Assembly (NCBI GenBank): GCA_963575745.1
Contig: CAUYUJ010000038.1
Coordinates: forward strand, 1-64,000
Length of the DNA stretch: 64,000 nucleotides
Reading direction: 5' to 3'
From: Prorocentrum cordatum
Lineage: Eukaryota
Under the pieces are notes generated by a model, which saw nothing but the letters and a program-made list of their open reading frames with translations, did not search any database and was not told the origin of the DNA. Positions 9,367 through 47,797 of this stretch are shown piece after piece. Within the stretch, counting starts at the first letter, position 1; each line of letters begins with the position of its first letter. Position numbers and translations under genes: made by a program.

Positions 9367-9437
9367 GATCGGAGTGCAGCGCATGGAGTCGACGTTCGTG
9401 ACAGCCTTCAACTCGTGCGGGTCCCCGAAGGCCCAGG
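9367..9437 (+). CDS. Candidate upstream exon of the Sec7 gene (IGVQRMESTFVTAFNSCGSPKAQ)
   Basis: Flanked by a CAG acceptor (9364-9366) and GC donors (9431 or 9438). FN...PK resembles the Sec7 N-terminal FNxxPxxG motif. The 9438 donor is phase-compatible with the exon at 37062. Confidence 0.3.
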
Positions 9438-11007: not shown

Positions 11008-11175
11008 AGTCGGGCGTGTCCCTCTCTACAGGAGATTGCAAAATAGTCAAACAAATTAGTCTGAGGACGATTTGTACAGCATTCGTTTTTGACCATTTTT
11101 ATTTTGTTTTTTGTTGTTTGTTTTTCTTCTTTATATTTTCGTCGAAAATCGGCCTGTAGGGGGACATGCCCAACC
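11008..11175. mobile_element. MITE family A, copy 1
   Basis: TIRs GTCGGGCGTGTCCCTCTCTACAGG / CCTGTAGGGGGACATGCCCAACC around an AT-rich core. Confidence 0.75.
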
Positions 11176-16200: not shown

Positions 16201-16636
16201 ACGTTCTTCACAACGCGTGGGGTTCCGCTACGCAAACGACTCACGCCATGGACGTGACAACCGACGCTACTACGACCGACCCCGTTCATCCTCCAGGAGG
16301 TCTCCAGACTCTCGAAGTCAATCGAGAAGTCGTTACGACAGATCTTCGAGATCTACCTCCCGAGGACGAGACAACCGTGGCGGCGGACGTGGCAGCCCAC
16401 GCGGCCGTGATAGATCGTACGGTAGTGACAGAGGGCGTGGCAGACGTTCCCCGAGCCGTGGCTCGCCCCGTGGTTCCCCCCACGCCAGAGCACGTTCTCC
16501 AGCCAACTATCGACGTTCACGCCGTTCCGACCGCAGTTACGTCATTCGTGACAAGACCCTCACGGCCAACACTAAGGTCACTACGACATCTACCAAACCA
16601 CGCCGTCGGATACGCTTCGGCACACGTAATGTGTAA
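13240..16636 (+). pseudogene. gag: Gag-like region: N-terminal low-complexity and coiled coil, helical core, three CCCH zinc fingers, RS/RG-rich tail
   Basis: Stitched from ORFs 13240-13929, 13959-14606, 14437-15297 and 15407-16636. Fingers: CVAWKEGNCRNGERCKALH, CFEFAKRNTCNRGGKCNIPH, CKDFAQNKCPKGDKCKYAH. Lies between the PBS and the protease. Confidence 0.75.
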
Positions 16637-16834
16637 TACTACCTACATACCGTATCTGGCAGGGCCAGGCTGGACGAGTGGAAGGAGATGCCGAACGAGG
16701 GTGACATTGTCATTGTACCAGACCCGATATCACAACGATGGTGGGATCAAAGTGCAGACGCTCTACGAGAATGTCAAAAAGAGGCACAGCTGTGGTACAA
16801 AGATCTATAGGACTACCGACACAACAAGGAGTCG

Positions 16835-17290
16835 GTGGTCACACCAACTGCGATCCGAGAATACGATGACGCTGTCAAGCCGTCATCAAAGACAGCCCAG
16901 ACGAAGACAACGACGATGCAAGTCGACCCACCACGCTCGACCGCTGCATTGACACGATCTTGGGTTCTCGACAGTGGTTCTGCGCATCATATTCAGGGTA
17001 AACACGAACTGACGCAGACCGAATCGGATCGCATATCTCTTCGCGAAGAGCATATTCTGGAAACTGCCAATGGAGATCGTACTGTCAACGAGCACTACGA
17101 CATACGGCTACCCTAGGTTGGCTTACATAGGTCAGCCCTTGCCTTGCCAGACTGTCCATCTTTACTATCAGTTGGGAAATTGATTGAGGTTGATGGCTTT
17201 CGGCAGCTTTGGGATCCCGAGCTGGGCTACTTGCTTCAGGATCCGGGGGGCCAATGGTATAAGATTCCAGTTAACAATAGAGTTCCAGAA
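16835..17290 (+). pseudogene. Aspartic protease (in-frame TAG at 17114)
   Basis: WVLDSGSAHHI at 16961-16993, then ETANG and LLSVGKL; same frame as the end of gag and the integrase. Confidence 0.9.
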
Positions 17291-17719
17291 TTACGACTCG
17301 ACGACCTGACACTGATACCACCACCACGTCTATGCACTTCGTCAGCACCCCGACGTCGTCAGCGCAAGCGTTCATCCGCCCGCTGCAACGACATATGTTG
17401 GTGCTGCAAAACTACAGAGCAGTCAACAACTGCAGATGAGCTGCGGCCCCACATAGGGACCTGCCCCAAGAGACCACATGTCGGCGAGGGAGGAGGAGCA
17501 CGGACCGCCACGGTCGAAGAACCTCCCGACACAAATAACCCCGAGCCTAACGTGGACACACCCACCGACTCGCTTATGTCTCAGACGCAGTGTTCTCCTC
17601 CAACATGCGGGGGGCTAGTAGAGTCAGCTCAAGCAGATACCGACATACCGACAGAGACGATCACACTAGTGCACCACGACAATGATCGCGTTCTTCCAAG
17701 TAGACAGAAGAAACCGATT

Positions 17720-18610
17720 GACCCTATGCATTACATGACCCACAGTCCAAAACACCCAGACTGTGAGATTTGTTCTCGCACGATGGCGCAGAATGCTCAG
17801 TGTCGACGACAGCGCAAGCCACATCCACCGGCAGACCCCACCGACGAGGATGCAGCCTACGAGGCTTTTATCCCGAAGAAATTTGGGGACGCCCTAACTG
17901 CCGACCATATCGTCTTGGCCAAAGACGATGCCGCAGACAAGCACGGCGACAAGTATGCACTTGTTGTCCTGGATAGATACACCGGCATCTTCATGGCTTA
18001 CCCAGCACTGCACAAAGACGCAGCTACCACAAAGGCATCCTTTCAACAGTTCATCGCCGCGAACGATGAGGTGAAGCATATCTACACAGATAATTCTGGA
18101 GAGCTTCAGAAGGCTTGCCGCCAACTGGGACGGAGACATGACACTAGTGCGCCGCATCGTCCGCAAACGAATGGATTGATCGAGCGCATCATCAAGATTG
18201 TCATTCTCGGTGCGAGAGCTGTGTTGCATATGTCTGGTTTGGGACATGAATGGTGGAAAGAGGCCATGCAAGCCTTTTGCTGTGGACATAATTTTGCGCA
18301 TCCATCCACGGGCGTTGCTGCCCTCAGCGAGGGGCACGTCGACAAGACAGCTCATGAAATACGTTTTGGAGAAAGTTTTCACGGGCACTGCATTCCATTT
18401 GGTGCTCGGATCTTTTGGAAATGCCTCAACCCCGAGATTAATAACGAGATTGCAAAGTTCAAAGAAAACACTCGGGAAGGATTATTCATGGGTTACCATT
18501 TACACTCTGGTGGACGATGGTCAGGTGATTATCTTGTCTTGGACACGGCTACATACGCCAAGACCCCCGATGGGGAACTGTGTCACGTACACAGAGTCAA
18601 AGACATCATC
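17720..18610 (+). CDS. Integrase (HHCC zinc domain plus DDE core)
   Basis: HYMTHSPKHPDCEIC; ALTADHIV (D), IYTDNSGE (D), PQTNGLIER (E); C-terminal PFGA and GLFMGY. Confidence 0.92.
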
Positions 18611-19739
18611 GTCCCCGATGGCAAGTTCACCTACCCAGTGAAAGAAGGTGCTCTGCGACACCACAACCCTGAGGCACACAACGAGGTCAAGGCATCTACC
18701 TCTCGCCCCTTGGGCGACAAACCAATGCCCGATCCCCCACTTTCCTACCCTAAAGAATGGGATGACCCGTCTATGATGACAACGGAAGACAACACCGCTG
18801 ATATCCACGCATCGGCCTCTGAAGTCGCTGCACCAGCGCCGGAGCCCGACTACTGGGAACAACGCGGATATTGCGTCATCAGCCCTATACGTATTCCACG
18901 CAAGAAATTGTTCATACCGACGGACGACGTCATGAACATACCTGTACCTGTTGATCAGCTCGACGTGACACGAGATTTCGATTCGACTTCTACCTTTGAA
19001 GGAGAAAGTGTCTTTCGCGATGTTTGGGGCGGTGTCAGCGCCAACGACCACGGGGGGTTGAGCGAGCCATGGACCGGCCTGGTTCGATTCTATGAGCTTC
19101 CAAAAATAACACCAGATGGAAAAATGGTGGTCCGTGGCCGCGAGACACGTGTACAGACTACTACGCGTCCTGATCACATTCTTCCCGAGCATTGGAAAAC
19201 CTTATCTCGTGAACAGCAAAAGAAAGAAATCGAGTGCGCCGAAGATGTTAAACGAGCTCGTGAGATTCCTGACCGAGCTGCACTTCGAGCGTGGACAAGA
19301 CAGGACAAACAGGCCAACAATTTCCGTACCACTACAGCTGGCGGACCCACATGGAATGCTGTGGAACGAAGGATTACGTACGACACTGGCAACGGCGCGG
19401 TCATCCGTGACGAAAACGTCAAGGGCGTGACGAACAAAGAAATTCTGTATGCCAAACTACCTGGTGGGCCACGTGACATTACTACGGTACTGTACTACCG
19501 CCAACCCCCACAACAGCATGCTGGAGACGAACGTGCTTCGGTGCTTGTGGATAGTGAGGGGGCCGACTTTGGGACCATGAGCCCGCTTATACGCCAGTTC
19601 ACCCAGTCGGTAGCAGTGCCCACTATGCCGCGTGAGACGACCTATACACCGGCACACAGAGACAAAATTCCCGATTCCTCATGGGCACGCCCGGCCCTAG
19701 TTACCAGAAGTCTGAGTAAGAAAGAAGTTGCCGCAGAAC

Positions 19740-22071
19740 CACGTGCACAGGAAGCCCTACGAAAAGAATACGAACGACTGGAGAAGAAACAAACGTGGAT
19801 GTTGGAGATTGTTGCAGAAAAAGCTGATATTGAGCCACAAGCTATTCGTACTGGGACGAAAGTTCATTTCTTCAATATCTTGGAGCTATCTTCAGTCAAA
19901 CACGAGGAACTTCCACTTGATCTACGCAATTCAAGGGCCGAGTGGTGGTTCAGGGCCACACAGGCAAAGATGGAACTGGTTTGGCCGCCATATTCGCCGA
20001 CGCCGCTTCCAGTGCTTCGCATATTGAGGCTTCCAAACTTTGCGATGCTACTGCATTATTGCCACAATATGCGGGCGAACAAAGTGATGCACCTGGAGCC
20101 TACACGCAGGCATTACTATACGGCGACGGACGAATCGATCCAGTTGATACTTGGATTACCATACCCAAATGGCGCCAACCGACATCCTGGTCAAAATACA
20201 AGAATCCAGTGTGCCGATTACGATTGGCACTATACGGACACCCTCTCGCAGGTGTCTTTTGGGAACGAAAGTGTCGCATATGCTTGGAAAATGCTGGTTT
20301 CGAGCCTATTCCAGGATGGGAAAGCGTATGGAGACACAACAAACTGGGACTGATACTTTCAGTATACGTGGACGACTTCAAATTAGCCGGACCAGCTAAC
20401 AATCTACAGGCTGGCTGGGACTATATCCGCAAAAGCGGTATTGACTTGGATCCACCTACTCCATACTCACAATATCTTGGCCGTGGACAACAGGCATACG
20501 ATGTACCGCAGAACATATTCGACAAGAGAATGTCTACAATACGACCTATGTTGCCCGTACACAGTGAGAAAGATTACAATACAGCCAAACAAGTTCGTGG
20601 AATTCGACATGACATGCTTGGTTTTACTGATCAGTGCATTGAGCGGTACCTGGAATGCGCTTCCAAGCGCGCCCAGGGACCAGGGTCACGTCGGAAACGG
20701 TCCGACTCGCCGAGGACTTCGCGATCCAAATCGCCTGTCTCCTCCGGGTCGGTCGCCAGACCTACTAGCGTGCTCAACGCGCGGCCGCGATTATCCAGCC
20801 CGGCAAGATCGGTCGATACACCATCTACTACAACAGAACCCATACCAGTCACATACGATGACCTACCTGACGCCGAGACCCCTGGCATCGAGGACACCTC
20901 CTTCACCGATTCCGATTGCTCCGATGAGGGCATCCTTGGCCAGGACGCAGCGAGTGTACTGATGGAGATTCTCTACCTGGCACGTTGCTGTCGTTTCGAT
21001 CTTCTACATCCAGTATGTATGCAAGCCAGAGAAATTACCAAATGGAATACCACGTGTGATAAACGTCTACATCGATTGATATGCTACATCAAAACGACGC
21101 GCACACATTGTTTACACGGATGGATAGGCGATTCGTCAGACAAGTCATCCATCATGCCCTTCACTGTCGATTGCATTCGCCATTGCAATACATCCTCTAA
21201 GTCCACTACCGGCGTCTTCGCCGCGCTTGTTGGACCTAATACGTTCTTCCCGGTCAACGCTGTGTGTAAGAAACAAACGGTTGTATCGCATTCATCTACA
21301 GAATCTGAGATCGTTGCTCTTGACTCAGCACTACGACTGGAAGGACTACCACTACTCTCATTCTGGGAAGCCGTGGTGGGAGTTGCCAACACATGCAAAG
21401 AGAAGAATTCTTGCCTGGGCTGCCAGGGACGCGCCGATACGGCGACGTGTCCGACGTTGGCCGCCAAAAAGAAGAGGCGCAAGCCGTCGCCTCGCAAGGC
21501 ACCCCCCACAAGGGGATCTTCTCCTAGCCGTAGGCAACTACCGCTGAAGACGGAGTTACCTACGCCTCCAAAGAGGCGTACGATATCCCATGAGGGTACC
21601 GCATTGCACGTGGATCCAAAACCTGCTCAGGAGATCAGCTCTCCCAAAGTGCGTCTTATCGTCCTCGAGGACAACCGGGCCGTGATCAAAATTGTCCAAA
21701 ATGGACGTACACCAGCACTTCGTCATCTTCATCGTACTCATCGTATCAACCTGGATTGGATATGTGAGACATGCCAATTTGAACATATTGAGCTCAAGTA
21801 TGTAGGTACAAAAGAGCAGATTGCAGATATGATGACCAAACATTTCGAGCCAAAGAAAGCAGACCTCTGGAAGGACCTCTTGGAACACTCGCTCATATTT
21901 CCCGTTACTCCGGTACAATGTCCTCCAAAGAAACTATGGAAACCACTGAAAGGGCCACGGAGGCCCGACGGTTTACCTCATGTTTCTGAACCTCCAAAAC
22001 TGGATGGATGTCCGGAAGTATGCAAAATCTTACTTACAGAGAATAAAAGATGGGGCGAGGTAGGATCATAA
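19740..22071 (+). pseudogene. pol: Copia reverse transcriptase and RNase H (one-base frameshift near 19929)
   Basis: KGRVVVQG, SDAPGAYTQA, LRLALYGHPLAGVFW and SVYVDDFKLAG; RNase H motifs SSTESEIVA, LEDNRAVI, RHLHRTHRINLDW and QIADMMTK. Confidence 0.95.
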
Positions 22072-22122
22072 TGTGGAATGCAATGCGTTGGATAAGCCAA
22101 TCACGAGGGCATATGTGCATGC

Positions 22123-25100
22123 ATGTACCACATTGGAGCACCCGCTGCAGCTACCGGTTCGCGCACACCTCGTTCGAGAGCACGTTCCCCGCATGGTAGA
22201 CAACCCCGCCACCCTCCCTCACCTCCGCAGAATACAGAGAGGTCTAGGACACTCATTATGCGTTCGTGCCGCAGCAATTTTACGACTCGAGCTACAAAGC
22301 GTACAAGCATCCTGTTCGCCGTGTGCGAGGCGCAAATAAGTGAGATCGGTTCTAATCCCGATACCCCCATCCCCGAGATGGATCAGGCACAGCCGCTCCG
22401 CCTCGTCGGCTGGCCCATCGGCTGCGACGCCGAGTACGACCCGAACGCCAAGGACGACGACCGCGTGGGCTTCACGTACCGCGCTCAAACTGGTCGCCCT
22501 CGTGATCCTGATGATGGATACATATACATACATCAACGGCGTGCTGATCGCAGTGCAAATTTTGAACTCCGCGTACCCGACGAATCCACTATTCGAGAAG
22601 TTGCCCGCTCTGCGTCCGCTGACGTCAAGAGTTGGATCAGCGAAACTGGTGGAACAGTCGGCGCCGACGCCAACTACGAGTACAGCACGATTACGGCTAC
22701 ACCATGGCTGTCTTTCATGAGGGCCATGTGCATGATCTCCAGCCTCTTCACTCGTAACTCGTCTGTACAAGAAAGTGTTCGTGGTTTACATGATCATTTG
22801 AACGCGGTGATCCCAGGGGCACACCGCAAGTGTCCGCCAATGGACCTTACGACGGTGATATTGAAGACGGAGTGGATTATGATTCACAACGATTGGTCCA
22901 AAGTTGGCAGTGCAGTACTGGGACAATATGCCGAGGACAGCGTTCAGGATACAAAATACTATTATGGAAATGGTCTTTGTGCACCTTCTGATGTATACAG
23001 CAATGGGTTGACAACTCCAAGCTATGCTCCTAAACTTGATCGTGGAAAGATCAAGTTACCCACGCGCCGACCTGGCTTAGCCAGGACATCAGATACTGCG
23101 GGACACATCGGCCACGCTGTCGAAGATAACCTTGTCACCGAAATGAGGGCATTTTCCGACATTAGCCAGACAAGCAAATTCCGCCGCAAGCTCAGTACAT
23201 GGCTGACTGCACGCGGAGGCTTTGGAGGTATCGGATCATACTCCAAGACGGCGGCAACACCATCCGATCACCCAGACGGCTGGCAGGCACTACCAGAGCA
23301 CGACGAAACTATGACGAGTACTTATCGTTGGCAACCATACGACGAGGGCTCTGTATTCATCGGCGAGGCCCCCACTGAGATTGACCCTGGTCTTACTCCT
23401 GGTCCTGATATTGACCCACTCGGGCTAGAACAAGCAAAGTGCAGCGCGTTTTGTGGTGGCCGGTTGGTTTCTACTCTTCTTTCAGACAACGGGTGGTACT
23501 CACTCGTACAGGAAGATCTGGGACTTCTCTTGCATCATGCCTTCGGTACATCAGGGCACGCATACAAATGGACAAACTTGTACACCGATTCAACATGGAT
23601 TCTGCAGCCCAAGAAAGGGTCCAAGGCCGCCAAGCACAATAAGTACCCAAGTCACGGCATCGACGAGCTCAACAGTCCACGGAAGCGAGACCATCTCGCC
23701 AAAGTATCAAACGTTGGTCTTGTACCGTTATTTATGCCGTGCCTCTATCGCGCGGAATGCATGGGTGGCGCTACCCTCGAGCACTTGTCGACCATCATCC
23801 GCGACGACATCATGATGTGGGCATTCTCCTTTGGCAATTACAAAGAATGGTTCAAACAGAACGACGCGCCGATTGACCAGGACTGCATTCAATTGCCAGA
23901 GGCTGGTGGAGACACCCGCTGTGATATGGCAGAGCTCCGTGAACAGCGTACGCAGACACAGGAGAGCCGCACCACAGCTATTCTCAACAACCAGTTCGAG
24001 TCCACCCTCGATCCGCGAGGCCAGAGGCCTGATGATATACAGCGACAGTGCCTCTATCAAAAAGTGGCGTGAATTAAACGAGGTCATCTGGGAATATTGG
24101 GCCAATGATTTTCCTGCATACGTAAAACAAAGGCACTATTGCAGAGGCCTCAATGCCACGGCGGCATGGAGCGCAAACGACATCGCATGTGCCAACCACG
24201 GACATAATACCGTGGACATGCGTCGCCACGGGGATCGTGCACCTACTTCTGTGCGCGAGCTCCAAAATATGGAATGTGAGGGCGGCGTCCCGACGCTTAT
24301 GCCAGTACACGTACAAGTGGATGTATCACGCTTTATTGATGTGATGCAGTACTTCCGTTGCCCTACGGTTATGGGGCCAGGCAAAGCAGCACAATGGGGC
24401 GTGCATCCGAACTTCGATTACCACACGGACGATTTGGTCAAGACGATGCAAAATCGTGGTATTACAGTTCTTCCATCAGGCCACTGGGTAGAAGCGTACG
24501 ATAGAATTACGCCTCAGGCTTGGCACGCAAAACAGAACAACCACAACATGGCGATGTTTACGACACAGTTCTGTGACGCAGTATGCTATCGTAATTTCTG
24601 TGCTTTGATCCAGTCACTGCCTTCTCAGCCGTATCCGTTCATACCTCCCATCACGACTCCTGTTACGGACGAGCAGGCCTACAGACAGGCCAAAGAGATC
24701 ATGTAGGCTCTTGACTTTAGAGAGAGGATCACAAACGAATGGAAGAGAGATCCCAGCCTCACGACGCTGATGACACAGACAGCAGGCGAGATGGCTCATT
24801 GTGCTTGGATGGCATCATGTGCCGATGGTACGCTGCCGGCATCACTGCCTGCTACCGCAGGTGACCCAAGCATACCTATTCCTGGAATCCCGGCACAGCC
24901 ACCAGCACTTGATCCTCGCGAGCCGAACAAGGCTATTCCTCAGAACGATCCACTTGGTCCTGCATATGACGAGTTATTCAGTTCCCTCTTACTGCTGATC
25001 AACGACTACCCTGGGGAATGGGCATCCTGGGATTCAGTCGAGAAACAAGAGCTCCTCCACCCCAAGATCATTAAAACAGTTGAAGATGCACATGCTGTTA

Positions 25101-28100
25101 CTTGGGTTGTGTTTGAGCAGTTTCTACAGCAGATTACCGACTTGGACGGAGACGATGAGGCGACCAAATCACGACTCATTGCAGAAGGCAACAGGTTGAA
25201 CGCCCACCGTGTAGGCCCTGCTGCCGAGAACCAACAGACCATCGAAGCATGCAAAACATTCTTCAGACAGAATGCATGGGATCGAGTGGCATTGGGGCAC
25301 GATCCCGATGTTCCGACTGCCGTATGGCGCGCGGCGGTTGAAGCGGACCAGCCAGCACCACCAGGCCCATTGCTTGAGCCACTACAGCCTGGCCCGCAAC
25401 CGATAGCCGTGCCAGAGCCATCAACGCATGGCCCGCTCCCAAACCGCACGCCAGCAGACCAGTCGCCAGCAGGACAGCTCCCGAAAGCCGAGACAGTCCC
25501 GATCCCCGATGACGGCACTGATTTAGATGCGATGGAGCTGGAGGCAACTCCTGCCGACGACGACCCTTCTCCACACACGGTGAATTTATTGTCGTGGCAG
25601 GACAGCTGCGAGAGTTCCATGTACGAGGACATCAGCCAGGTCGGGATGCTCGACAACGCATGCACTATTCGAGAGTACAAGCTTCAAGCAGGCATCGTGG
25701 ATGACCATCCGTACGTTTCTCCTGTATTGCGGGGTATATCTGCGACCAATGGATTTGCTTGCCTACAGAATGAGGAATGGTTCGATCAATTGCAACACGA
25801 CGATTGTGTGATTGCCCACGCTCCCGATATTGCACAATCTGGTTGTTTTCCGGAATGGAAGTGGATATCACTACCACATTACGACGATATACGTTATGGT
25901 CCTGAATTATTTGATGAGTGGCTCGGAGATCCTAAATACATGAGCAAAGACATCACGACGATGTTACGCCACGAGATCCACTACAAGAAGTTCCACATCA
26001 ATCAATTTCACGATCGACGTATCAACATATGGCCGAATACAACGGATCGTGAGTGGAAGATCCCAAGTAATTGGAAATCCTTTCAGGATGTGGTCAAATG
26101 GAAATTCAGTGATCGTAAAAGCCACAACGGACCATCCACCGATGCGGCCATGACGCACTTCAAAAAGGATGGTGAGAAAGATGGTACCCCGATTGGAATG
26201 ATTACTACCCGATATTCATCATTCGTGCGTTCCGGAAACATATTGACCCGCAGAAGAATCGGATTGATATATACGCCAAACCAATCCCCGAAGGAGGCGA
26301 CCCCAGCTGTTTCGATTGGAACAGCGTTATTGCCATTCGATGTGTTGGAGGCCACAGTTGCGTCAATCCACTTTCCAAACCATGGAACATGGGCTGGGAG
26401 AGCCTACAATGGACAGACGTGAAATACCTCCACCATGACACGACATTCCGTGTTTGGCGCAACATTCTCAAGACAGAGATCATTCCCGGCTATATCGATC
26501 CATCTTCTCAGAGAGACAAATATTATAAACCATCACCACGCACGGAGGCATTCTTCAGTTCCAGCACATATATAGACAATGTCCAGAAGAATCCCCACAC
26601 CTCGGTACAGTCATACAAGTTCAATCACTACAAGAACGAGGTCGAGCTGGTGATCAACATGGAGATTGCCACAAAAGCTGGTTGCAGATTTTGGTTGGGC
26701 GCCCAAGGCGCTATTATGACAGAAGACGTGGTTCCCGCAGCGGCAGTCATTGCAATTCGCCGTCTCCAACCACGCCACGCGCACGGCCAGCAGATATGGC
26801 CGGAGGGCCCGGCCTGGGACTATCCGCCATTGGCCGCGAGACAACCATTGAGCAAATGCGAAATGTGTGCCGTTCTTCCTGGGCAGGAGTTCATCGACAT
26901 CCCTCCTGGGATTACACCAGCTGACACGGATCACGACATGGATCAGCAGCCAAGGACACCATCAGCATCAGCATCTTCGGCTCAGCGACCGATTGCCCCT
27001 CAGCTGGGGGCAGCCCCTGCTGGCCGCATATCTGACGCCGACGCCTTGGACGAACAAATGGTCCGCGCTATGATCAACAATTGCGAGCACAATACAGAAG
27101 ATAAAGAATGGTTGATCGCTATGTCATACTGCCGAGAGGCTCTTCGACCCATCACATCAAATATTACACAGAAAGATTGGAATCGTCGGCCTATATTTAA
27201 TGATGTTTGCATGGGGGATTTCATTGTCACTAAGAATTGGGGATCTACCAATTGTTAGAATTATGACAAGCACTACCCCAAGGGCAATCACAACACCAAG
27301 GTCCTCATGAACAAGGGCCACATATACGGCCACATCATTCATTTCGGAGTCTTTGACATGTTCTTTGCGGTACAAATACCTATCCTCAACTACGGTTTAC
27401 GATGGGTAAACATATGGTACAACGACAAAAGCATGCCTCTCAAGGGCGTTGTCTTTGCTTTGCCAGTACGTGCCGACATCGACCCGAGAGATATGAATAT
27501 TGCGCTGGAAGGACCATCCTCATGCCGCGACAAAATACATCAGCATAAAACAGATGGTGATCTACCATATCTCGGAATGCCGAGCATTTATAAGCCACGT
27601 ATCCCACGTGCGCCGACCAGACGGCCCGCTCCTCGGACACCCGATCCCGAATAGCTGGTGGCCACACCTGCCGAGGATACTGCTCCCGCGGACGATGGAC
27701 CCCAACAAAAGGCAGGCCAATCTGCTGACCCTCTGGTTACCGTCATTGTGGATATATCAAACATCCCACTCACTGCCGAAGAGAAAGCAGCAAATGAAAA
27801 CATGAGATCAGATTTATCAGCAGAGATCCAGGCAGATGAGCACGTCGACGCGAGCATCCTCGACAATAGTATCGACCCTCCAGAGGACTCCCTCAACCAC
27901 CCCGACTACGACCCAGAGGAGGACTCAAAGTGGATCAAGCAATCATATGACCACCGCATATACCGCTGGGCATCGGAGTTGTTGGTGGACTCACCTATGA
28001 TAAAGGTGAAACAAGTCATTGAGGTGCACACGGGCGCTGATAAGATTGTGGCGGGTAAAGCACAGTCATACTTTCGATCTGGGATTCTATTTGGATCCAA

Positions 28101-30103
28101 AACATGGAGCGCGGAGACATACTATTTTGATTACAAGCATACCCACAAATGGGCACGTGACTTACCGATTTGCAGTGCAGATAGCTTCTTCAAAAAGTTG
28201 GTACACGATCTGGGCCCAGAGGTCATTGAGGAATCGACTACAGGCGTCTTCCAATGGATCTCTAAAGTGTATCAAATAATACGGCTGGACAGTATTGCTG
28301 AGCTTCGTGATTTCAGAAAAGATGCTATTCATCAGAACCATCCTGCACTCAAGACGTTGCGTGATCTATTTACACATTGCATCCAGACATTCGGTAACCC
28401 AGGCTTCCCCGTATGGAGGGAGCTGGTGGAAACACCTGCCGCGCCGCGTGACCCAGGCGCGGAGCAGAACATTCCCCAGGATCCAGGCAGCGTTGCATCC
28501 GCAGCTCCAGATCAGGAAACCATGGTACGGATCATAGCCCAACAGAAGGGAATCAACCGCGAGGAGGGTGACAACGAGTCCGCCTTGCAGGAAGAGGCTA
28601 GCCGTATCCGTACAGAAAACGCATGCCATGGTGATACTGACGACGCGGACAACGACACGACCGAGCGCGGTGGACTGCCAGGGGAAAGATTGTCCAGGAT
28701 CGAGATCGATGGAATGAGCAGATCGATCGCTTCCCGTCCGACCGCCGAGATCAACCGCGATGCCATCGATCAGATTTGCCGCAGTCTTGCTCGTGGTCGG
28801 GACACTCGCTGGGGTCTCGTGGGCACCTCACGATTGACGGAGCCCCAGAATATATTCAGCATGATACCGCGCGATGTCGGAATTGCGGTCGCATCTTATC
28901 CCTAGGGCTCGTTACAGATGAAGGTACCGTTTGTGACATATGCTGGCAGTACACCGTTGCCGTAGGTGCCACGGGTAAAAGCACCGCTGTCGAGAGCGAC
29001 CTGGCATACCTCCAGAAGCTGACCAACTGGATCAAGACGACGCTCTCCCAGGAGGGCATCACGAGGTACATGAGAGACGGAGCGCAGGTCATCATGATGG
29101 GCAAGCGCTCCGTTCCAGGCAATGAGAAAGACGTGCTGAGGAGAATGGCAAATGCTGCTAGGAAGAGGTATGAGAAGTGGGTCGCCGCTGGCTCCCCTCC
29201 TGCACACATGTGCAGATTGATGGGCGAGCGTGATGACGACAGACCTCTATACCATCCCTTTGCCAACCTCATTCAGCGCTTTCTCAATGATTTGAGTTCC
29301 ACCACCAAATGACATGCGCTCGTGCCAATAAAGACAATAACGCCTATACCATTGAGGACATGCGCGGCGCCTGTGAAATCCTCGAGACCAGCATCAGGAC
29401 TGGCCAAGCTGGTCGGAAGAAGTGGTGGTTGAACGCAGGCAGACTCGACCGAAGCACGCGGCAGGCGCGCGGACTTGTCACGATTGCCCTGCCCAGAGGG
29501 GATGGCACCCGTGAGAGAGTCACGCAGCGCAAGCTTGCCGCGCTTGCTTATGTTGAACCCGCCTTGGGTTCCACTGACCAGAGGGGGGTTGATTCAGGGA
29601 TGAGAAGCGATCCGATCGAACCTGATACATACTCCCAACACTCTGATGATGCCATGGAGCCACGCATGCCGCGGCACCCGCCGCCGCCGCCGCGCCACGC
29701 TCCTGGCGACGCTGCAGGGCCCAGCGCCTCAGGCGCGCAGGACTACATGCCCGCGGGGCCGCGCGGCACTGCAGCGCAGCGGCAGGACAGCGACGACAGC
29801 CGCAGACCTGCTACGCCTCCCCGCGCCAAGAGGGCGCGCACGACGGAGGACTACGCTAGATGGTGGCGCGACGACCTGGAGGACAGCCAGTGGGGCCCCA
29901 GATACTGGAGCTACTACATTAAATGCTGGATATACATCGCGGACAACAACGGCGAGTTCGTATACGTCCGCGACATCCAGTACAATGAGTGGTTCCGCCA
30001 CTGGATCCCGAGGGCGCCTTGGGAGACCTTCACGACGAGCTACGCGTCGCACGACGGCCACAGGATGTGGGACCGCAGGTTCTACGAGAGGGGCAACGCG
30101 TAG
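22123..30103 (+). pseudogene. Extra ~2,600-codon ORF inside the LTR element, interrupted by single stops and about four frameshifts; contains Tpt1/KptA-like, possible SGNH-like and CxxC zinc-ribbon segments
   Basis: ORFs 23831-24706 and 24770-26422 share a frame and are split by one TAG. ORFs 26389-27258, 27307-27654 and 27658-28905 share a frame and are split by single TAGs. The remaining ORFs overlap at frameshifts. Intronless and sense to pol. Confidence 0.8.
25940..26760 (+). pseudogene. Tpt1/KptA RNA 2'-phosphotransferase-like domain
   Basis: Family motifs in order: SKDITTMLRH (cf. SKxLSxxLRH), DPQKNRIDI (cf. DKxRF), IRCVGGHS at 26335-26358 (cf. IRANQGHS), YLHHDT at 26425-26442 (cf. LYHGT), NILKTEIIPG (cf. 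SIxxxGLxP), RTEAFFS (cf. RxHVHLS), and VINMEIATKAGCRFWLGAQGAIMTEDVVP (cf. IDxxxMxxxGxxFYxSxNGVWLTxxVP). Confidence 0.8.
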
Positions 30104-36800: not shown

Positions 36801-37061
36801 ATGCCTGAGTTTAGTCTCCTGCCGCCTGGGCCGAATGCGAGCCAGCCCTACGGTTGGCGGGCATGAGGATCAAAGACATCTGGAATCTACTGGCGCTCCT
36901 CCTCCTCCTCCTCTTCCTTCTCCTCCTCCTCCTCCTCCTCCTCCTCCTCCTCCTCCTCCTCCTCCTCCTCCTCCTCTCCTTCTCCTCCTCCAACCCCTTC
37001 TCCTCCTCGTCCTCCTCTTCTTCCTCCTCCTCCTCCTCCTCCTCCCCATTTTTCGGCGCAG

Positions 37062-37196
37062 CCGGGAAGGACGTGCAGAGGAACGCCGAGGCCGCCGGGC
37101 TCTCCGCGTCGGACGCGGCCAGGCTGCTGTACAGCGCGGGCGACCGCGTGTCCGTGGACCTGCTCGGCCAGTGCCTGGGCGACCACAGACCCTTCG
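37062..37196 (+). CDS. Sec7-domain ARF-GEF exon (GKDVQRNAEAAGLSASDAARLLYSAGDRVSVDLLGQCLGDHRPF)
   Basis: CAG acceptor 37059-37061 and GC donor 37197. The phase-1 join to 38173 restores the frame. Matches the Sec7 A.FL....L....IG.YLG segment. Confidence 0.8.
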
Positions 37197-37214
37197 GCTC
37201 TGGGGGGGGGACGA

Positions 37215-37756
37215 CTATGACTAGGAGGGTGATGCTGCTGCTGATGATGATGCTGCTGATGATGATGCTGATGATGCGGACGTTGGCGATGATTGTGATG
37301 AAGATGAGGATGAGACGATGATGATGGTGGTGATGATGAGTACATGATGCTGATATTGATTATGATGATGATGCTGCTGATCATGCTGATGACGATGATG
37401 ATGATGATGCTGATGATGATGATGCTGATGATGATGGTGATGATGATGATGGTGATGGTGATGATGGTGATGGTGATGATGATGATGACGACGATGATGA
37501 TGATGCTAACGATCATGTTGATGGTGATGATGCCGATTATGATGCAGATGATGCTGATGATGATGATGATCACGATGGTGATGATGGTGATGATGATGAT
37601 GGTGATGATGATTATGATGCTGATGATGATGGTGATGATCACGATGGTGACGATGGTGATGCTGATGATGACGATGATGATGAAGATGATGATGCTGATG
37701 ATGATGATGGCGATAATGATGATGATGCTGATGATTATGATGATGATGATGATGAC

Positions 37757-37814
<58 letters not shown>

Positions 37815-37880
37815 GTGATGGTGATGGTGATGGTGATGGTGATGGTGATGGTGATGGTGATGGTGATGGTGATGGTGATG
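37215..37880. repeat. (GAT)n/(GATGGT)n microsatellite within a GC-AG intron
   Basis: Direct inspection. Confidence 0.97.
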
Positions 37881-38172
37881 AGAGAGGGGTGTGTGTGTGT
37901 GTGGCTATTTTGCAGTTTTTCTAACTTCGTACGGTCCTCGCGAGCAATATTCCTAAGCTCCACGGTCGTTTGCCACAAGAGTGTCGCGGAATCGCAAGCA
38001 TGGATTGATGCGCGAAGATTTGGGACGGGCCCCGCTTCCATACCACATTGCGCTGGCGACATGCCTCGGGGGCTGCGTTCCCGGATCCGTGCACCTGGCG
38101 CGCACGCGCAGACCCGCGGATCCCCGGTCCGTGCCAGCACGTGCTTGGAGAAACAGCACCTCCCCGGGGCAG

Positions 38173-38296
38173 GGGTCCAGCTGTGCGAGCAGTACCCCTG
38201 CAACTTCGCGCTCTCCGGGCTGGACCTCGTGCCCGCCCTCCGCGCGTACCTGCGGCGCTTCCGGCTGCCGGGGGAGTCCGCCCAGATCGACCGCAT
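38173..38296 (+). CDS. Sec7 exon with catalytic glutamate finger (ALRAYLRRFRLPGESAQIDRI)
   Basis: FRLPGExxxIDR is Sec7 motif 1; CAG acceptor at 38170-38172. Confidence 0.92.
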
Positions 38297-39408
38297 TCCG
38301 GGGCGCCCAAGGCGGGGGGCGAGGACCCGGGGATGCCCCGACGGCTCGCGCCGTGAAAGGATGCAGGCGGAAGTTGTCTGGCAAGTCTTGCTTTCCCGGG
38401 CTCTCACAAGGCCGCGGGGCCATGCCATCAAACAGTCACTCGGGATGAATCGAACATTCGTCGCAAGGAAGGGTGTCCAGACCTCTGGGCGCCCGACAGG
38501 TGAGGACTTTCTCGTCGTCGAACGGGGCGGCGGGGGAGGAAGACGTCGTTCATTCTGGAGGTTTTGCCGCCTCGGCATGCGTTTCATAGGAGCTGCGCCT
38601 CGTCGAGAGCTTTCCTATAGGGCGACATGATCGACTCGAACGGCTGCCGGAGGTCCGGGCTGCTGCCCGCAGGCCACCAGCGTATCGGAAATAGAAAGGC
38701 TGGAGTCCCTCGCAGTCTTCGGAGGCTCTGGTGGCCCTCGCCGGGCTCCGGGGTCGGCGCAGAAACGACTAGGGTTCGGTCGGGCCTGTCCCTCTACAGG
38801 AGGAAAATTCAAAAATAGTAGAAGAATAGGCTGGGGAGGATTTTCTGATTATTTGTTCGACTATTTTGAGGCATGTTTTACATTTTTAGGGGTTCTCCCA
38901 AAATCCGCCTGCAGGGGGACATGCCCGACCTCAGACCAGGGATGAGAAGCCTGTCCCCGGGAAGGGGTCGAGCTGGGGACCCCGTATTGAAAACAGTCAA
39001 GACATGGGATCTTTGGGACTAGGGTGTGTGTGTGTGTGTGTGGATATCGTTTCTGGAGGGCATGAAGTCCTCAGAGATGTCATGGCCCCCTTGTGCTTCA
39101 AGCACGCTCCCTGGCCTCCCTCCTCCCTTGTCCGCCGGCATGCCTTTGGCCATGATGCGCCAATACCCCTCTTCCTGGGCCCCCTCTCCAGTAGTCGTCC
39201 GACGTCGCGTTTTTTTCGCAACCTGGCTCCCCAGAGGTATTGACCTTCTCTTCCCAGGGGCCGACGTTTTATCCCGAGTCGTGTTCCGACAGTCTCAGAG
39301 CCCTGTGGAGGCCCCCGGAGGCAAAGCTGCCAAACCCCCTCAGTCGTGAGTTTCTCCACGACGCGAGGATGTCGTCAGGGTTACTGGCTCCCCTCTTTGG
39401 CGCACCCG
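38297..39408. mobile_element. Foldback (long-TIR) element interrupting the Sec7 coding sequence; candidate non-canonical intron
   Basis: Flanked by the direct repeat CCGCAT (38291-38296 and 39409-39414). Degenerate inverted arms ~38298-38580 and ~39135-39408. Contains a nested MITE A copy. Confidence 0.75.
38778..38930. mobile_element. MITE family A, copy 2
   Basis: GGTCGGGCCTGTCCCTCTACAGG / CCTGCAGGGGGACATGCCCGACC. Confidence 0.8.
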
Positions 39409-39414
39409 CCGCAT

Positions 39415-39537
39415 CCTAACTGGCTTCGCGCGCGCTTTCTTCCGGCTCAACCCAGCGCTGCCAGAGCCAGGGCTGTCAGGTCGCCCCTTCGAAGAGGCCG
39501 CGGTGGGCTGGTACGTGGAGCAGCCGCTGTCCAACAG
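39415..39537 (+). CDS. Sec7 exon (LTGFARAFFRLNPALPEPGLSGRPFEEAAVGWYVEQPLSN), not in the ORF track
   Basis: RILTGFARAFFRLNP corresponds to Sec7 RIMEAFAxRYxxxNP. Ends at an AG|GA donor (39538); the phase-2 join to 41437 restores the frame. Confidence 0.85.
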
Positions 39538-40214
39538 GAGCTGATCTTTCTACGTAGTGCATGAGCAGTGACCAGGGCTGGACCTAACAGGTTTTTGTGG
39601 CGAATTCGTGGGCCGTTTGCGTTTCGACTTCCTTTTGCGGTAAAGGCAGATTCGAGACGAACGCGAGGGAAAACGAAAACAAAACGACAACGAAAAACAC
39701 CGCTTAGGTTCCGCCCTGGCACTGACGTTCGGAGGCCCGCGCGGCTTTCCCGGGTCGGTGCTCCCCTCGTGCCCAGCGCGCGGCGCGCCAGGGGGGGGGG
39801 GGGGGCGGCAGAGGCGCCACCATGGGGAGGCCCAGCGCCGAGCCGAGACATCCGTGCGGGCGTCGTGAAGTTTGTGTGTGTGTGTGTGTGTGTTGTGTCG
39901 ACTCGTCTCTCTTGTGTTTTTAGCTGTGTTTAGGCGGGAGCATGTATGGGGAGTGGGGGAAGGCAAACACCTGGAGAACATGGGGAAGTGTGGGGAAGTC
40001 TGCCACGTGTCTACATTTACGTGTGTGTCCCAGGGCCCCTTTATACTTGTTCTTCTTGTTCTCCTTGTCGACAACGGGATCGCCCCCTGGCGACAGCAGG
40101 CGTTCAACAACATCCTCGCGTCGTGAAGCAATTGCGGCCAGAGGATTTTGGGAGTCTCGGCTTTATGGGCTGCTCCCTGAGCCCCAGGACAATGAGTAGT
40201 CTGGGCGACGGGCC

Positions 40215-40890
40215 CTGTTCGTCTTCGGTTGAGCTCCCTATGGGGCCACGAAGCGTGTGAGGCGTGTGCCGAAATGGGCGGGGAACCGCGTGCGAGCCCT
40301 GCCACTAATGCTTTCGGTGGATTGCGAAGCGTGCGAGGGATGTGCCAACATGGGCGGGGAACCGCTTGCGACGCTGGCACCGAGGCCTTCGGGGGAGCTC
40401 CCCGGGGCGGCCACGCAGCGCGTGAGGGTTATGCCGATGTGGGCGGGGAACCGCATGCGATCCCTGTCGCTGGGGCCTTGGGAGGAGCTATCTGTGAGGC
40501 CACGAACGTGTGGGGGTGTCCGCACGCAAGCCCTGTCACCGAGGCCTTCGGTGGAGCTGTCTATGGGGCCACGATGCGTGTGAGCGGGGAACCGCATGCA
40601 GACCCTGACACTGGGGCCTTCGGGGGGGCTTTCTTTGTGGCCACGAAGCGTGTGAGGGTTGTACCGACGTGGGCGGGGAACCGCATGCGAACCTTGCCAC
40701 AGAGGCCGACATGGGCGGGAAACCGCAAGCGAGCCTTGCCACTGAGGCCTTCGGTGGAGCTCCCCGTGGGACCACGAAGCGTGTGAGGGGTGCACCCAAA
40801 TGGGCGGGAGGCCACATGCGAACCCTGTCATTGGGGCCGTCGTTGGAGCTCCCTAGGGCGGCCACGAATCGTGTGAGGGGTGCGCCGGCA
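40215..40890. repeat. ~83-bp minisatellite (GGGCGGGGAACCGCATGCGA...GCCTTCGGTGGAGCTCCC..GGGGCCACGAAGCGTGTGAGG)
   Basis: About eight degenerate tandem units, inside a GA-AG intron. Confidence 0.9.
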
Positions 40891-41436
40891 TGGACATGCG
40901 GAGGGCAGAGGCAGGGATGGGAGGAGGGTGAGGAGGCGGAGGAGGAGGAGGAGGAGGAGCGGAGGAGAGGAGGAAGACGCGGGGCGCCATCCATTCAAAA
41001 CGAGGACCCGCAGGATGGTTGTGCAACAAGCCGGTGCTTGTGAGAGGTCCAGTTGTCCAGAGGACCATGTTGCGACAAGAGTCACTACATCGGATCTCTT
41101 GGGATCACGGGTCACGGGGGGGAGAGCGAGGACTGGGGACCAGTAGCGTCACCCTTAACCGTTCCAGTGATGACGGCGTTGCCGCGGATCGTGGCGTTGC
41201 CAGGGAGGGGGGGATGGCGGGGGGTGCGGCCCTGATAACAGGTGCTATCGCGAATGATTCGAATCAGGTGTTTGATCCAACGCAGCCGCCCAGCCTTCGC
41301 GCCGAAGACCGAAGGAAGGCGCCGAATACCTGCAGAAACCGCCGAAGACCGTCGGAAGACCGCCGAAGACCGCCCGAGGCCGATGGGCCACAGGGGGGTC
41401 CATGGTCAGACACGCAGGTTGAAAGACTGCTTCCAG

Positions 41437-41935
41437 TGGCCAGCCCTGCTGCATCCATTGCGGCGTCCTCGGCGACCAGGAAGGGCAGGAGGTGCTGGTC
41501 TGCGAGGGCTGCAGGCTGATAAGCTTCTGCAGGAGGTGTCACATGACTGCCTCTCGCCAGGGGCACGTCGACAAGGGCTGGTCATGCTTCGGCCGCGCAT
41601 GCGCCGCTGCAATCCGGGAGTCCCAGAAGCTTCCCAGGGACGTCAACCTCGACTTCGACCTGAAGGTCGGGGGACGTTATGTCGACGTGACGGTGCCAAA
41701 GGACAGTTTGCTGTGGGAGCGCGCCAGCCCCTTCCGGACGGAGGACGCGGTGATGATTTTATCGTTTGCCATCATCATGCTGACCACAAATCTGCACTCT
41801 GTCAAGATCAAGAAAGAGAAGAAGATGCAGAAGCACGAGTTCCTCGCGCAGCTCCGCGAGCAGAACGACGGCTCCAACTTCCCGGGCGATTTCTTGTCGC
41901 AGATCTACGACAATATCAAGCAGAATGAGTTCAGG
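41437..41935 (+). CDS. Sec7 exon: MYND-like zinc finger followed by Sec7 motif 2
   Basis: CCIHCGVLGDQEGQEVLVCEGCRLISFCRRCH...GH......C, then FRTEDAVMILSFAIIMLTTNLH...KMQKHEF...NDGSNFPGDFLSQIYDNIKQNEF. CAG acceptor 41434-41436; probable GT donor at 41936. Confidence 0.9.
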
Positions 41936-42189
41936 GTGGACACCGCATCTACTGCCCCCTCGCGCCCGCCTGCCGATGTGCCGAGGCTTTGTCGCTGCCG
42001 TCGCTGCCGCCGCCGTGCCGACACTTCCGATGTTTGCGTTTTTTTGCAAACCTGGCCCCCCAGAAGTGCTGACCCTTTCTAAGTGCTGACCCTTTCTCCG
42101 CGGCACGCTGTTCAATTCTGAGCTGTTTCGATCACGGTCTGGGGGTCTGGTGAGGACTTCCAGGCACCGAGAATCACACATTCTTGGGG

Positions 42190-42415
42190 ATGAGGAGGAG
42201 GAGGAGGAGGAGGAGGAGGAGGAGGAGGAGGAGGAGGAGGAGGAGGAGGAGGAGGGGAGAAGGAGGAGGGGAGGGGGGGAGGAGGAAGAGGAGGAGGAGG
42301 AGGAGGAGGAACGGGGGGGGGGAGAGGAAGAGGAGGAGGAGGAGGAGGAGGAGGAGGAGGAGGAGGTAGGAGGAGGAGGAGGAGGAGGAGGAGGAGGAGG
42401 AGGAGGAGGACGTAG
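42190..42415. repeat. (GAG)n microsatellite
   Basis: Direct inspection. Similar tracts occur at 7533-7595, 10507-10603, 36897-37045, 46258-46330 and 48750-48950. Confidence 0.95.
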
Positions 42416-44428
42416 AGGCTTCGGTGGTCGCCGCCATCATCGCCACACTTGCCGCAGTCGTCGTCTCCGCCTCCACCGTCGTCGCCGCCTCCGCCGTTGC
42501 CGCCGCCGCCGCAGCCGCCGCCGCCGTGGCAGTCGCCGCCGTGCCGCCGCGGCCGCCGCCAGGCGCACGGCGTCGGCGGAGCGACGCTTCGGCCACCGGC
42601 GCGTGCGCAGCGACGGGGGCGCCTCCATGCTGCGGCGCAGCAGGCCCCCGAGCCAGGAGCCCAGGCCGTGACGGGGCGCCTTCGGGCGGGCCGCGGCGCC
42701 CGAGAGCCCCTCAGCGGCCGGCTCCGCGGGCGCCCGTGCGTTGTCGTGAGAGGAGGCCTGCGCCGTTGGTGCCTGGAGCTCTCTAGACGGCCCCGGAAAA
42801 GTCAGGGGCGCGCCGGAGGTTCCCCGCCCTTGCGCTCACTCTCCTCCTCTTCCTCCTCCTCCTTTTTCTTCTCCTCCTCCTCCTCCTCCTTCTTCTGTCA
42901 GAGGAGGAAGTTGTCTTGTGTTGTCATGTTTGGGCTGGCCTTGAACAACTGGTCAGAACGCACCCCAGGAGAGACCCTTGGAGTAACAGTGTGGGTGAAT
43001 GTTTGTTTTCCCACTCCCCTCTCCAGGGCAAGAGTCTAGCGTGTGCGCTGTCTCCCTCTCGCCTCTTCCTCCGCTCTGGATCTCCTTGATCGGCTTTAGC
43101 TTTTCGAACCCATTGACGTCCTCGTGAGGCTCTGGCCTCCGTATGTTGTGGATGGCATCCCAGATCGAGCAACCCCGCTCGTGCCAGCGTACAGCCTGTT
43201 GATATGTGCAGGAGGGGCGATAGCGTGTGTGGTCTGTCTGTGGATCGGGGTACAGATTTTGTTGATCTCTTTCCAGGCCGCGTGGCCGACAAGCTGTAGC
43301 AATGCCTGATCTGTAAACATGTGATTGTCGGGATGCCGACCATGTCTCAAAACTTATTCTATCACTCCAATCTGGCTTTAGACGCAGGCCAAGGCTAGGT
43401 TGCAGCAGCTTGTCCGCAGAGATACTCGAAGCTGTCACTTTCATGGCAGGGGCGTGGTGTCGCAGGCGATGTTTCTCCCCCAGCCCCCAGCTTTTCGATA
43501 CAAAACTGAAGCAGCTCAGAAAATAGGGGAAACCTTGGGATCCACCCAAAGAGGGCTATTCGGACGCACCTCTATCGAGGATGGACGCCCCCCCATGGTG
43601 CATCCCAGAGTTGGGCCAAAATTGTTGGTCCATTCGGAAACCCCACCAGGCCTGGGATAGGGGCCGACACATCCCTTGATGTGGTGTCCTGAGTCCAGGC
43701 CTTTCCTAGCAGCCTCTGCCCCGCTTCTTCCTCCCGCCAGGCGTGCGGGCAGCCATTCCTGGGTCGCCCACGGTTGGCCTCGCTGTCCGATCTCGGGATC
43801 GCCCCCGGGCAAGGGCAGCGGAGTTCATACACAGACGGTGGGTTCGCGTCGTGCCGACCGGCGGCGAAGCCCGCCGCCAGCTCTCAACGTTGACCGCCGC
43901 TGGCGACCCGGAATCGGTCGACGTTGAACGATCTGACGTGTCGGGAACGGCCGACCGTTCGAGGTGGAACGATCCCCGCGGTGTCACAGGCCAGCGCCTA
44001 AGTCGGTTCGCCACGGACCTGCCGCAGCCATGGTTTCCTGCACGTCTTCTCCCCTGAGATCGTCTGTCCCCTCCTGCTCCCCGCTCCTCCCTCCTCCCTG
44101 CTGCTCCCTCCCTTCTCCTGCCAGCCTCCTCCTGCCACCCTCCTCCCTCCTCCCTGCTCCTCCTCCTGACATCGACGCTGGGCCTCCTCCTCCTCCTCCT
44201 CCTCCTCCTCCTCCTCTTCCTCCTCCTCCTCCTCCTCCTCCTCCTCCTCCCTCCTGCTCCACCCTCGTCCTTCCTGTGCGTACATCCTGCTCGTCCTTCT
44301 CTGCGGCCCCGAGGAGAGTAAAGGACGCGCTGGCGTCGTGAACCAAATATGGGCGGGGGCGGGGGCCCTCTCTGGGCCCCGGGCCCGTCGAAGAACGACT
44401 CGGGATGAGAAGCTCGTCCCTAGGATCA

Positions 44429-44580
44429 AGTTTGGCATGCCCCTCTACAGAAGGACTTTTCAAAACTAATGAGAAGTCGTTTAGGGACGACTTTCCGATT
44501 ATTTCTTTATTTTGCACGAACGCTTTTTTATGCTTTGATTTTGCGTCCAAGATCTGCCTTCAGCGGGACATGCCCGACCT
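44429..44580. mobile_element. MITE family A, copy 3
   Basis: GTTTGGCATGCCCCTCTACAG / CTTCAGCGGGACATGCCCGACC. Confidence 0.7.
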
Positions 44581-47641: not shown

Positions 47642-47797
47642 AGTCGGGCCTGTCCCTGTGCAGGGGGAATATTCAAAAATAGTTAAAGAAATCGTGGGGG
47701 AACGTTTTTTTGCTTTGGACTATTTCTGACGGTGTTTGCGTATTTTTGTGAATTCTCATTTTTCGTCCAAAGTCCGACTGTAGGGGGACGCGCCTGG
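47642..47797. mobile_element. MITE family A, copy 4
   Basis: GTCGGGCCTGTCCCTGTGCAGG / CTGTAGGGGGACGCGCCTGG. Confidence 0.7.

Follow-up and report, generated by a model that had tools for sequence, protein, structure and literature searches.

In the first 64,000 nucleotides of Prorocentrum cordatum contig CAUYUJ010000038.1 (assembly GCA_963575745.1, forward strand; hereafter the window), a gene for a Sec7-domain protein is interrupted by a foldback element that has no conventional dinoflagellate intron boundaries and is exactly absent from RNA-derived contigs. The inserted element is 1112 nt long (38297-39408, forward strand) and, together with one copy of the 6-bp direct repeat CCGCAT that flanks it, makes up the 1118 nt that are missing from the RNA contigs. 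We consider it probable, although with considerable room for doubt, that this insert is an introner-like intron that is removed at the RNA level independently of its boundary sequence, as in the dinoflagellate Amoebophrya. An earlier note on this DNA, made before any RNA was compared, had offered three fates for the insert: precise removal at the repeat, removal via splice sites donated by the element, or a dead allele.

Absence of the insert from RNA-derived contigs

Sequencing runs matching positions 38000-42100 filled 24 rows, of which 20 held part of the stretch, in shares of 0.06-0.22, about the expectation for exons only. Assembled contigs of four runs from four studies were compared with 37930-40400 (X1, with polyA RNA on record; X3 and X12, guessed to be RNA; and X19, of unknown kind). 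In all four runs, a single contig joins 38290 directly to 39409, skipping 1118 nt, with six letters at the joint that fit either side. The shorter side of the joint measures 119, 119, 65, and 119 letters in the four runs, and the contigs show no difference from the window exons over 38172-38290 and 39409-39537 (248 nt) in any of them. Their loose ends before 38172 agree with the end of exon 2 (37167-37195), and those behind 39537 equal the start of exon 5 (41437-41466); the contigs that carry the joint thus lack introns 2 and 4 as well. No other joint is listed within the gene in the four runs, and depth is zero in every run over the bins unique to the insert (38345-38676 and 39009-39340). Precise removal at the repeat, the first of the fates offered earlier, is therefore what the RNA-derived contigs display.

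The joined form is also that of the encoded protein. P0002, a protein of 359 residues for which the sole sources are JGI and Logan contigs no longer than 1301 nt, reads IDRILTGF across the joint, and a tblastn search of P0002 against the window located six exons at 100% identity. Translation of the six joined exons reproduces P0002 exactly, from ATG to TGA, with a complete Sec7 domain (PF01369, above the gathering score at 133.8 bits, profile positions 9-183 of 183). Family proteins numbered 43, and three stayed out of the alignment: P0043, a weak match, and two fragments of 163 residues, P0005 and P0006. In the 40 aligned members, I[D/E/Q]R[I/V] runs on ungapped into the residues that follow in 39 of 39 relatives; P0001, the published NCBI model of the locus, is without this region. 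The relative P0003 stands at 80% identity. No locus in metagenome contigs matched exactly a 35-nt pattern that was drawn from the end of exon 3, and none of 594 pattern matches there was confirmed as a relative of P0002.

Exon 3 ends with ...GAC CGC AT at 38296, and exon 4 resumes with C CTA ACT GGC at 39415. Taking out 1118 nt, a length that is not a multiple of 3, leaves ...LPGESAQIDRILTGFARAFF and restores the frame, so that the join of exons 3 and 4 reads FRLPGESAQIDRILTGFARAFF. The two CCGCAT copies, at 38291-38296 and 39409-39414 on the forward strand, extend on neither side and supply the six ambiguous letters of the RNA joint; they are a putative target-site duplication. Among 200,000 random 1118-nt deletions of the window, a junction repeat of at least 6 nt occurred at a frequency of 0.0028. 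The coordinates and sequence of this rejoining within the Sec7 IDRI motif are as the earlier note had given them, and its statement that no register of precise excision ends in AG also holds (0/7). The seven equivalent registers begin and end with CC/CG, CG/GC, GC/CC, CA/CG, AT/GC, TT/CA, and TC/AT, and none has a G[T/C/A]..AG or AT..AC boundary. The duplication supplies a possible GC donor in register 38293, and the matching 3' end is without AG.

Several other modes of removal were tried against these registers and rejected. A canonical intron on the antisense strand is ruled out, as none of the seven registers begins with CT, and two-step or recursive canonical splicing would need an AG at 39407-39414 for its final 3' boundary, where none is present. 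IRE1-type splicing and archaeal bulge-helix-bulge cutting were rejected by eye, and these two rejections carry low weight: both CCG|CAT sites have a T at the position of the G that is essential to IRE1, and the repeat is too little self-complementary for the 4-bp central helix of a bulge-helix-bulge motif. The register from 38295, which begins ATTCCG and ends GC, departs from U12-type (AT-AC) introns, whose 5' end would read AT or GT and then ATCCTT and whose 3' end would be AC or AG (RTATCCTY being the form quoted in PMC5032977).

Anatomy and predicted fold of the insert

The ends of the insert are inverted copies of each other. When the left 320 nt are aligned locally with the right 320 nt in reverse complement, a left arm at 38299-38489 matches a right arm at 39230-39408 (both given on the forward strand), with 120 matches and 55 mismatches and a score of 25.5, against 12.1 +/- 1.6 and a maximum of 17.5 in 300 shuffles (z 8.1). 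A blastn comparison gives 61.9% identity over 147 nt. The alignment starts at 38299, 2 nt inward of the left CCGCAT copy, and at 39408, adjoining the right copy, and the terminal inverted repeats read CGGGGCGCC.. and ..GGCGCACCCG. The heavily diverged inverted arms of the earlier note are thus real, though weak; of the ~280 bp that it had allotted to them, only about 190 nt can be aligned, and it is the predicted RNA pairing, at ~260 nt, that comes close to its figure.

Terminal inverted repeats that start at the very ends, together with the flanking CCGCAT duplication, are those of a derivative of a cut-and-paste transposon, that is, a MITE (miniature inverted-repeat transposable element) or foldback element. 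The interior is non-coding; the list of open reading frames (ORFs) for 38297-39408 holds short ones and no transposase ORF, these ORFs having lain outside the Pfam scan. Because the arms are only about 62-69% identical, the insert looks old, provided that the arms began nearly identical. An assembly artefact appears unlikely, as a diverged foldback with a clean 6-bp duplication would be unlike a palindrome made from chimeric reads. Rfam 15 gave no match at E<=1 over 37900-39900 on both strands.

At the centre of the insert lies a nested MITE-like repeat of 153 bp (38779-38931, no strand assigned) with 27-nt inverted ends (85%). Three more copies occur in the window at about 11009-11175, 44434-44580, and 47643-47789, which makes four copies in 64 kb of a family of ~150 bp with the ends GGTCGGGC...GCCCGACC. 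The arms of this repeat alone match many other RNA contigs of the four runs. Low-depth contigs over 38779-38931, 39573-39787, and 40088-40336 look repeat-derived and were set aside, as was a contig of X19, probably repeat-derived or chimeric, in which 40132 is followed by 37 foreign letters and then by 38733.

The minimum free energy fold of 38281-39424, a prediction from one sequence, has -504 kcal/mol and pairs the terminal parts of the two arms, 38299-38328 with 39378-39408. Pairing between the arms reaches 38559/39187 in this fold and comprises 105 long-range pairs. The terminal helix itself, 38299-38307 with 39399-39408, is GC-rich, with nine pairs and one bulge; pair probabilities are 0.98-0.999 for seven of the nine pairs and 0.73 and 0.46 for the other two. 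When the first 160 nt and the last 160 nt are folded together, the gain over folding them separately is -24.8 kcal/mol, compared with -6.9 +/- 3.7 kcal/mol (minimum -17.1, n=100) when the right arm is shuffled, and with -13.1 and -16.9 kcal/mol for introns 2 and 4 of the same gene.

In the explanation that we favour, a coding exon of the P. cordatum Sec7 gene would have received, directly after the catalytic FRLPGE..IDR motif, an element like a DNA transposon, old and non-autonomous, which bears inverted arms at its ends and made a CCGCAT duplication of 6 bp. Transcription of the gene would include the insert, and the RNA would then lose it together with one copy of the duplication, no more and no less, so that the reading frame from before the insertion returns without calling on G[T/C/A]..AG boundaries. 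The arms may pair into a long panhandle whose terminal helix would set the two CCGCAT copies side by side, and cutting and joining could then occur at equivalent positions of the two copies. The machinery could be either a spliceosome that tolerates unusual boundaries, which has been proposed for Amoebophrya, or a system of its own, which is the proposal for Euglena. If the removal is spliceosomal, the likeliest register would be 38293-39410 (GC...CC|G), because it keeps a GC donor, the commonest in the species, and a G that starts the next exon. Two steps of this explanation are inferred: the window copy as the source of the RNA, and the guidance of the cut by the helix.

The host gene and its published annotation

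The gene is encoded on the forward strand. Exon 1 (9383-9430, with the ATG at 9383) was placed by the tblastn match of P0002 and an enumeration of boundaries, and exon 2 (37070-37196) by the tblastn match, in agreement with the loose ends of the RNA contigs. Exon 3 (38173-38296) encodes the Sec7 catalytic region ...FRLPGESAQIDRI, with a 3' end that is ambiguous over 38290-38296. Exon 4 (39415-39537) encodes LTGFARAFF...PLSN, and the RNA contig pieces over 39409-39537 hold no other letters in 4/4 runs. Exon 5 (41437-41985) contributes a Cys-rich insert and the C-terminal half of the Sec7 domain, and exon 6 (42563-42671) ends with the TGA stop at 42669-42671. Enumeration of the joins that reproduce P0002 gives a conventional register for each of the four other introns: intron 1 (9431-37069, 27.6 kb, GC-AG), intron 2 (37197-38172, GC-AG), intron 4 (39538-41436, GA-AG), and intron 5 (41986-42562, GC-AG). 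Of the five introns, only intron 3, which consists of the insert and one CCGCAT copy, departs from the conventional dinoflagellate boundaries, and it is this intron that annotation could not accommodate.

The published model P0001 has 327 residues and is named "unnamed protein product, partial [Prorocentrum cordatum]." The 80-residue translation of 41660-41899 is 100% identical to both P0001 and P0002. P0001 is without exons 3 and 4, hence without the Sec7 catalytic motif, and keeps only positions 116-183 of the Sec7 profile; in it, exon 2 leads straight to a point midway in the reading frame of exon 4. The loss of these exons appears to be caused by the non-canonical intron 3, and it fits a gene-prediction pipeline that was modified to accept GC and GA donors beside GT, and no others (Dougan et al., 2023; PMC10666404). 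In the published genome, which has 59.7% G+C, donors are GT in 24.7%, GC in 51.4%, and GA in 23.8% of cases (PMC10666404). The window is GC-rich eukaryotic DNA, with a GC content that varies between 0.50 and 0.70 in 2-kb steps.

Other features of the gene were noted along the way. A Cys/His-rich segment with the pattern CCxHCG...CxGC...FCRxC...GH...GRAC interrupts the Sec7 domain at about residues 141-195 of P0002 (41437-41600) and is conserved in those dinoflagellate and haptophyte relatives that were inspected; it looks like a zinc-finger insertion, and it has no Pfam match at E<=0.01. Intron 1 contains, at 13700-30100 on the forward strand, a series of long ORFs with weak Pfam matches to zf-CCCH (15338-16633), the rve integrase core (17117-20350), and RVT_2 (19921-22068), the latter two under the gathering score, and together these ORFs look like a Ty1/copia-type retroelement. 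Very long trinucleotide arrays occupy parts of intron 1 ((CTC)n, 50 units, 36896-37045) and intron 2 ((TGA)n, 217 units, 37230-37881), and a further array lies in intron 5 ((GGA)n, 75 units, 42188-42410). Intron 4 holds tandem repeats with periods of 42-131 nt at 40438-40883.

Competing explanations and known kinds of intron

A number of points weigh against removal of the insert at the RNA level. The RNA evidence consists of assembled Logan contigs, in which rare insert-retaining RNA, rare isoforms, and expression levels would be invisible, and polyA RNA is on record for one of the four runs only. In the fold analysis, 3/100 random window pairs of the same spacing also reached -24.8 kcal/mol, and the guiding role of the helix would follow from the predicted fold of a single sequence. 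The earlier note had looked to other copies of the arms elsewhere in the genome; the search covered the 64-kb window and found no second copy of the outer element. Core dinoflagellates are, moreover, described as having nearly universal AG acceptors (PMC12584245, PMC5032977).

The main alternative concerns the source of the RNA. The mRNA may come from another copy of the gene, one that never carried the insert or has lost it, for example a retrogene, a strain variant, a paralogue of recent origin, or a collapsed tandem copy, with the copy in the window disrupted, silent, or giving RNA that is degraded. Duplicated genes are abundant in dinoflagellate genomes (PMC10666404), joined contigs alone do not tell the locus of origin, and the annotation and assembly are incomplete. 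We regard this explanation as unlikely, yet as one to be taken seriously. Against it, P0001, the window's own model, is the only P. cordatum protein of the published annotation among 41 relatives of P0002 (7041 candidates), and no insert-free paralogue is annotated. The perfect match of exons 3 and 4 to the contigs of all four runs, the loose ends that match exons 2 and 5, and the exact derivation of P0002 from the six window exons likewise argue for the window copy. Because the insert looks old, an intact copy that diverged before it arrived should carry synonymous differences, whereas the exons match the RNA without a difference; the disrupted copy should, for its part, have decayed. Vegetative cells of dinoflagellates are haploid, and given this a heterozygous empty allele would be unexpected in a clonal culture. 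The dead allele of the earlier note fits poorly, as the six exons reproduce the transcript-derived P0002 exactly.

Template switching by reverse transcriptase is classically associated with a structured segment that has a short direct repeat on its flanks, and the enzyme could have jumped between the CCGCAT copies across the base of the hairpin while the true RNA keeps the insert. We think this very improbable: the joined form is the only assembled form in four runs of four studies, with zero depth over the unique parts of the insert, so switching would have to be complete in four libraries, and a complete 1.1-kb jump is unlikely with a 6-nt guide and arms at 30-40% mismatch. The joined product is, in addition, the conserved form of the protein in 39/39 relatives. 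No literature report relevant to such switching was found for Prorocentrum. Excision at the DNA level, by a transposase-like activity acting on the duplicated CCGCAT in some or all cells, with RNA made from the repaired gene, would suit both the cut-and-paste anatomy (target-site duplication and terminal inverted repeats) and the unit that is removed (the element and one repeat copy). There is little to recommend it, however, for an element that is old and diverged and has no transposase ORF; the assembly holds the filled form, and cut-and-paste excision usually leaves footprints. Programmed DNA elimination is, in addition, not known in dinoflagellates. Least credible is ordinary spliceosomal removal through a GC-AG pair donated by the element (38312-39378, forward strand), the second fate in the earlier note, or through another canonical pair, with extra residues after IDRI. 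The pair is present as described, in frame and adding 17 residues, and it belongs to the commonest intron type in P. cordatum (PMC10666404). The corresponding joint, 38311 to 39379, occurs in none of the four runs, which contradicts it as the main form, and the 17 residues are absent from P0002 and from 39/39 relatives.

Removal at the RNA level independent of boundary sequence, which remains our preferred explanation, has a precedent in the non-canonical introners of Amoebophrya strains A25 and A120, in which the inverted repeats measure 8-20 nt and the direct repeats 3-5 nt (Farhat et al., 2021; PMC7789003); the earlier note's appeal to such introns is borne out by that study. Like them, the Sec7 insert is absent from RNA, lacks a GT-AG-type boundary, and has inverted repeats at its ends, with a predicted hairpin that brings the exon ends together. 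It also shares with them a short direct repeat over the exon/intron boundaries, 0-2 nt from the inverted repeat, and a MITE-like anatomy with no transposase inside (PMC7789003). By the definition of Farhat and colleagues, it is an RNA-validated intron without canonical boundaries and with an end-to-end inverted repeat of 8-20 nt (38299-38307/39399-39408, continuing to 38328/39378). The two differ in the direct repeat (6 nt here, 3-5 nt there), in length (1118 nt here, 40-1000 nt among those analysed there), and in abundance, as non-canonical introners are the majority class in Amoebophrya, whereas the Sec7 insert is one of the five introns of its gene and is known from one copy. Their hosts differ as well: Amoebophrya is a syndinean parasite reported to be without U1 small nuclear RNA, whereas Prorocentrum is a free-living core dinoflagellate (PMC7789003).

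Introner elements have also been annotated in Polarella and P. cordatum, among others, and make up 2.4% of the annotated introns of P. cordatum (Dougan et al., 2023; PMC10666404). Those of P. cordatum share the host species with the Sec7 insert and carry, no more than 30 nt from the ends, inverted repeats of 8-20 nt and short direct ones; unlike the insert, they have conventional boundaries by construction, having been found with tools that take GT, GC, or GA only (PMC10666404). The introner-like elements of Symbiodinium and Polarella are likewise insertions of DNA transposons, and splicing takes out the element with one copy of the duplication (Roy et al., 10.1101/2020.10.14.339549). If the duplication here is counted as GCAT only, it fits their GHNN pattern, with the donor drawn from the duplication. 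Those elements are described, however, as always drawing on the duplication or the element for G[A/C/T] and AG, whereas the Sec7 insert ends ..CCCG(CC) with no AG register, and they form multi-copy families, whereas one copy is known here (10.1101/2020.10.14.339549). The insert is therefore not an introner in the sense of Huff, Roy, and Gozashti, in which canonical sites come from element and duplication, since there is no AG at the matching 3' end. Dinoflagellate introns with an identical repeated intron boundary (IRIB) offer a further parallel, for their border repeat (2-11 nt) is kept once in the mRNA and leaves the splice position ambiguous (Mendez et al., 2015; PMC5032977). Their repeats always contain GG, usually AGG, consistent with G[T/C/A]..AG|G, whereas CCGCAT contains neither AG nor GG (PMC5032977); it is the other four introns of the gene that behave in the IRIB manner (G[T/C/A]..AG|G).

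Outside the dinoflagellates, the nonconventional introns of euglenids have variable non-canonical borders, terminal inverted repeats that join the ends, and duplication-like junction repeats, which have suggested a MITE-like origin (Nomura et al., 2025; PMC12501133; PMC11282704). Read as 38296-39413, the Sec7 intron is TTC-CGG...CCG-CCGCA and fits three of the four parts of the Euglena code 5'-N3CDG-/-CH'GN5-6|R; the next exon base (39414) is a T and not a purine, so the intron falls outside that class (PMC12501133). The likeness is one of resemblance only and may be coincidence, as the lineages are unrelated and the helix here extends over ~30 bp and beyond, against 3 bp in euglenids (PMC12501133). 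The MITE-derived introns of Fritillaria borealis are also transposon-derived with non-canonical ends and are removed by a spliceosome with an evolved tolerance; they belong to an animal and have other boundary types, and the comparison follows their description in a review only (PMC11282704).

For core dinoflagellates, no report of introns without G[T/C/A]..AG boundaries was found in the literature covered, from which many papers behind subscription were missing, among them Roy et al. (2023) in its journal form. Such boundaries are placed only in Amoebophrya, with "nearly universal AG" acceptors elsewhere, by a review from 2024 and by an Amphidinium genome paper from 2025 (PMC11453091, PMC12584245). 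The Sec7 intron, known from this one locus, would place them in a new host lineage. A broader hypothesis, plausible but on balance somewhat doubtful, is that core dinoflagellates, and not only Amoebophrya, clear pre-mRNA of transposon inserts that form hairpins, acting at the target-site duplications regardless of boundary sequence, with a geometry near the Euglena N3-CDG/CH'G-N5 code. Such introns would have gone unseen since the annotation pipelines for these genomes all accept only G[T/C/A]-AG, and exons may as a result be skipped or cut short in many published gene models, as in the one here.

The practical consequence is already visible at this locus, where the model published from a donor-restricted pipeline lost two exons with the catalytic Sec7 motif (PMC10666404). 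If the RNA does come from this locus, a free-living, bloom-forming core dinoflagellate cleanly removes an intron without recognizable splice sites, a feat so far described, among dinoflagellates, for two Amoebophrya strains only. Tolerance of transposon insertions in coding exons may then be older and more widespread in the group than has been thought, and such wider tolerance would bear on the origin of the intron richness of dinoflagellate genomes.

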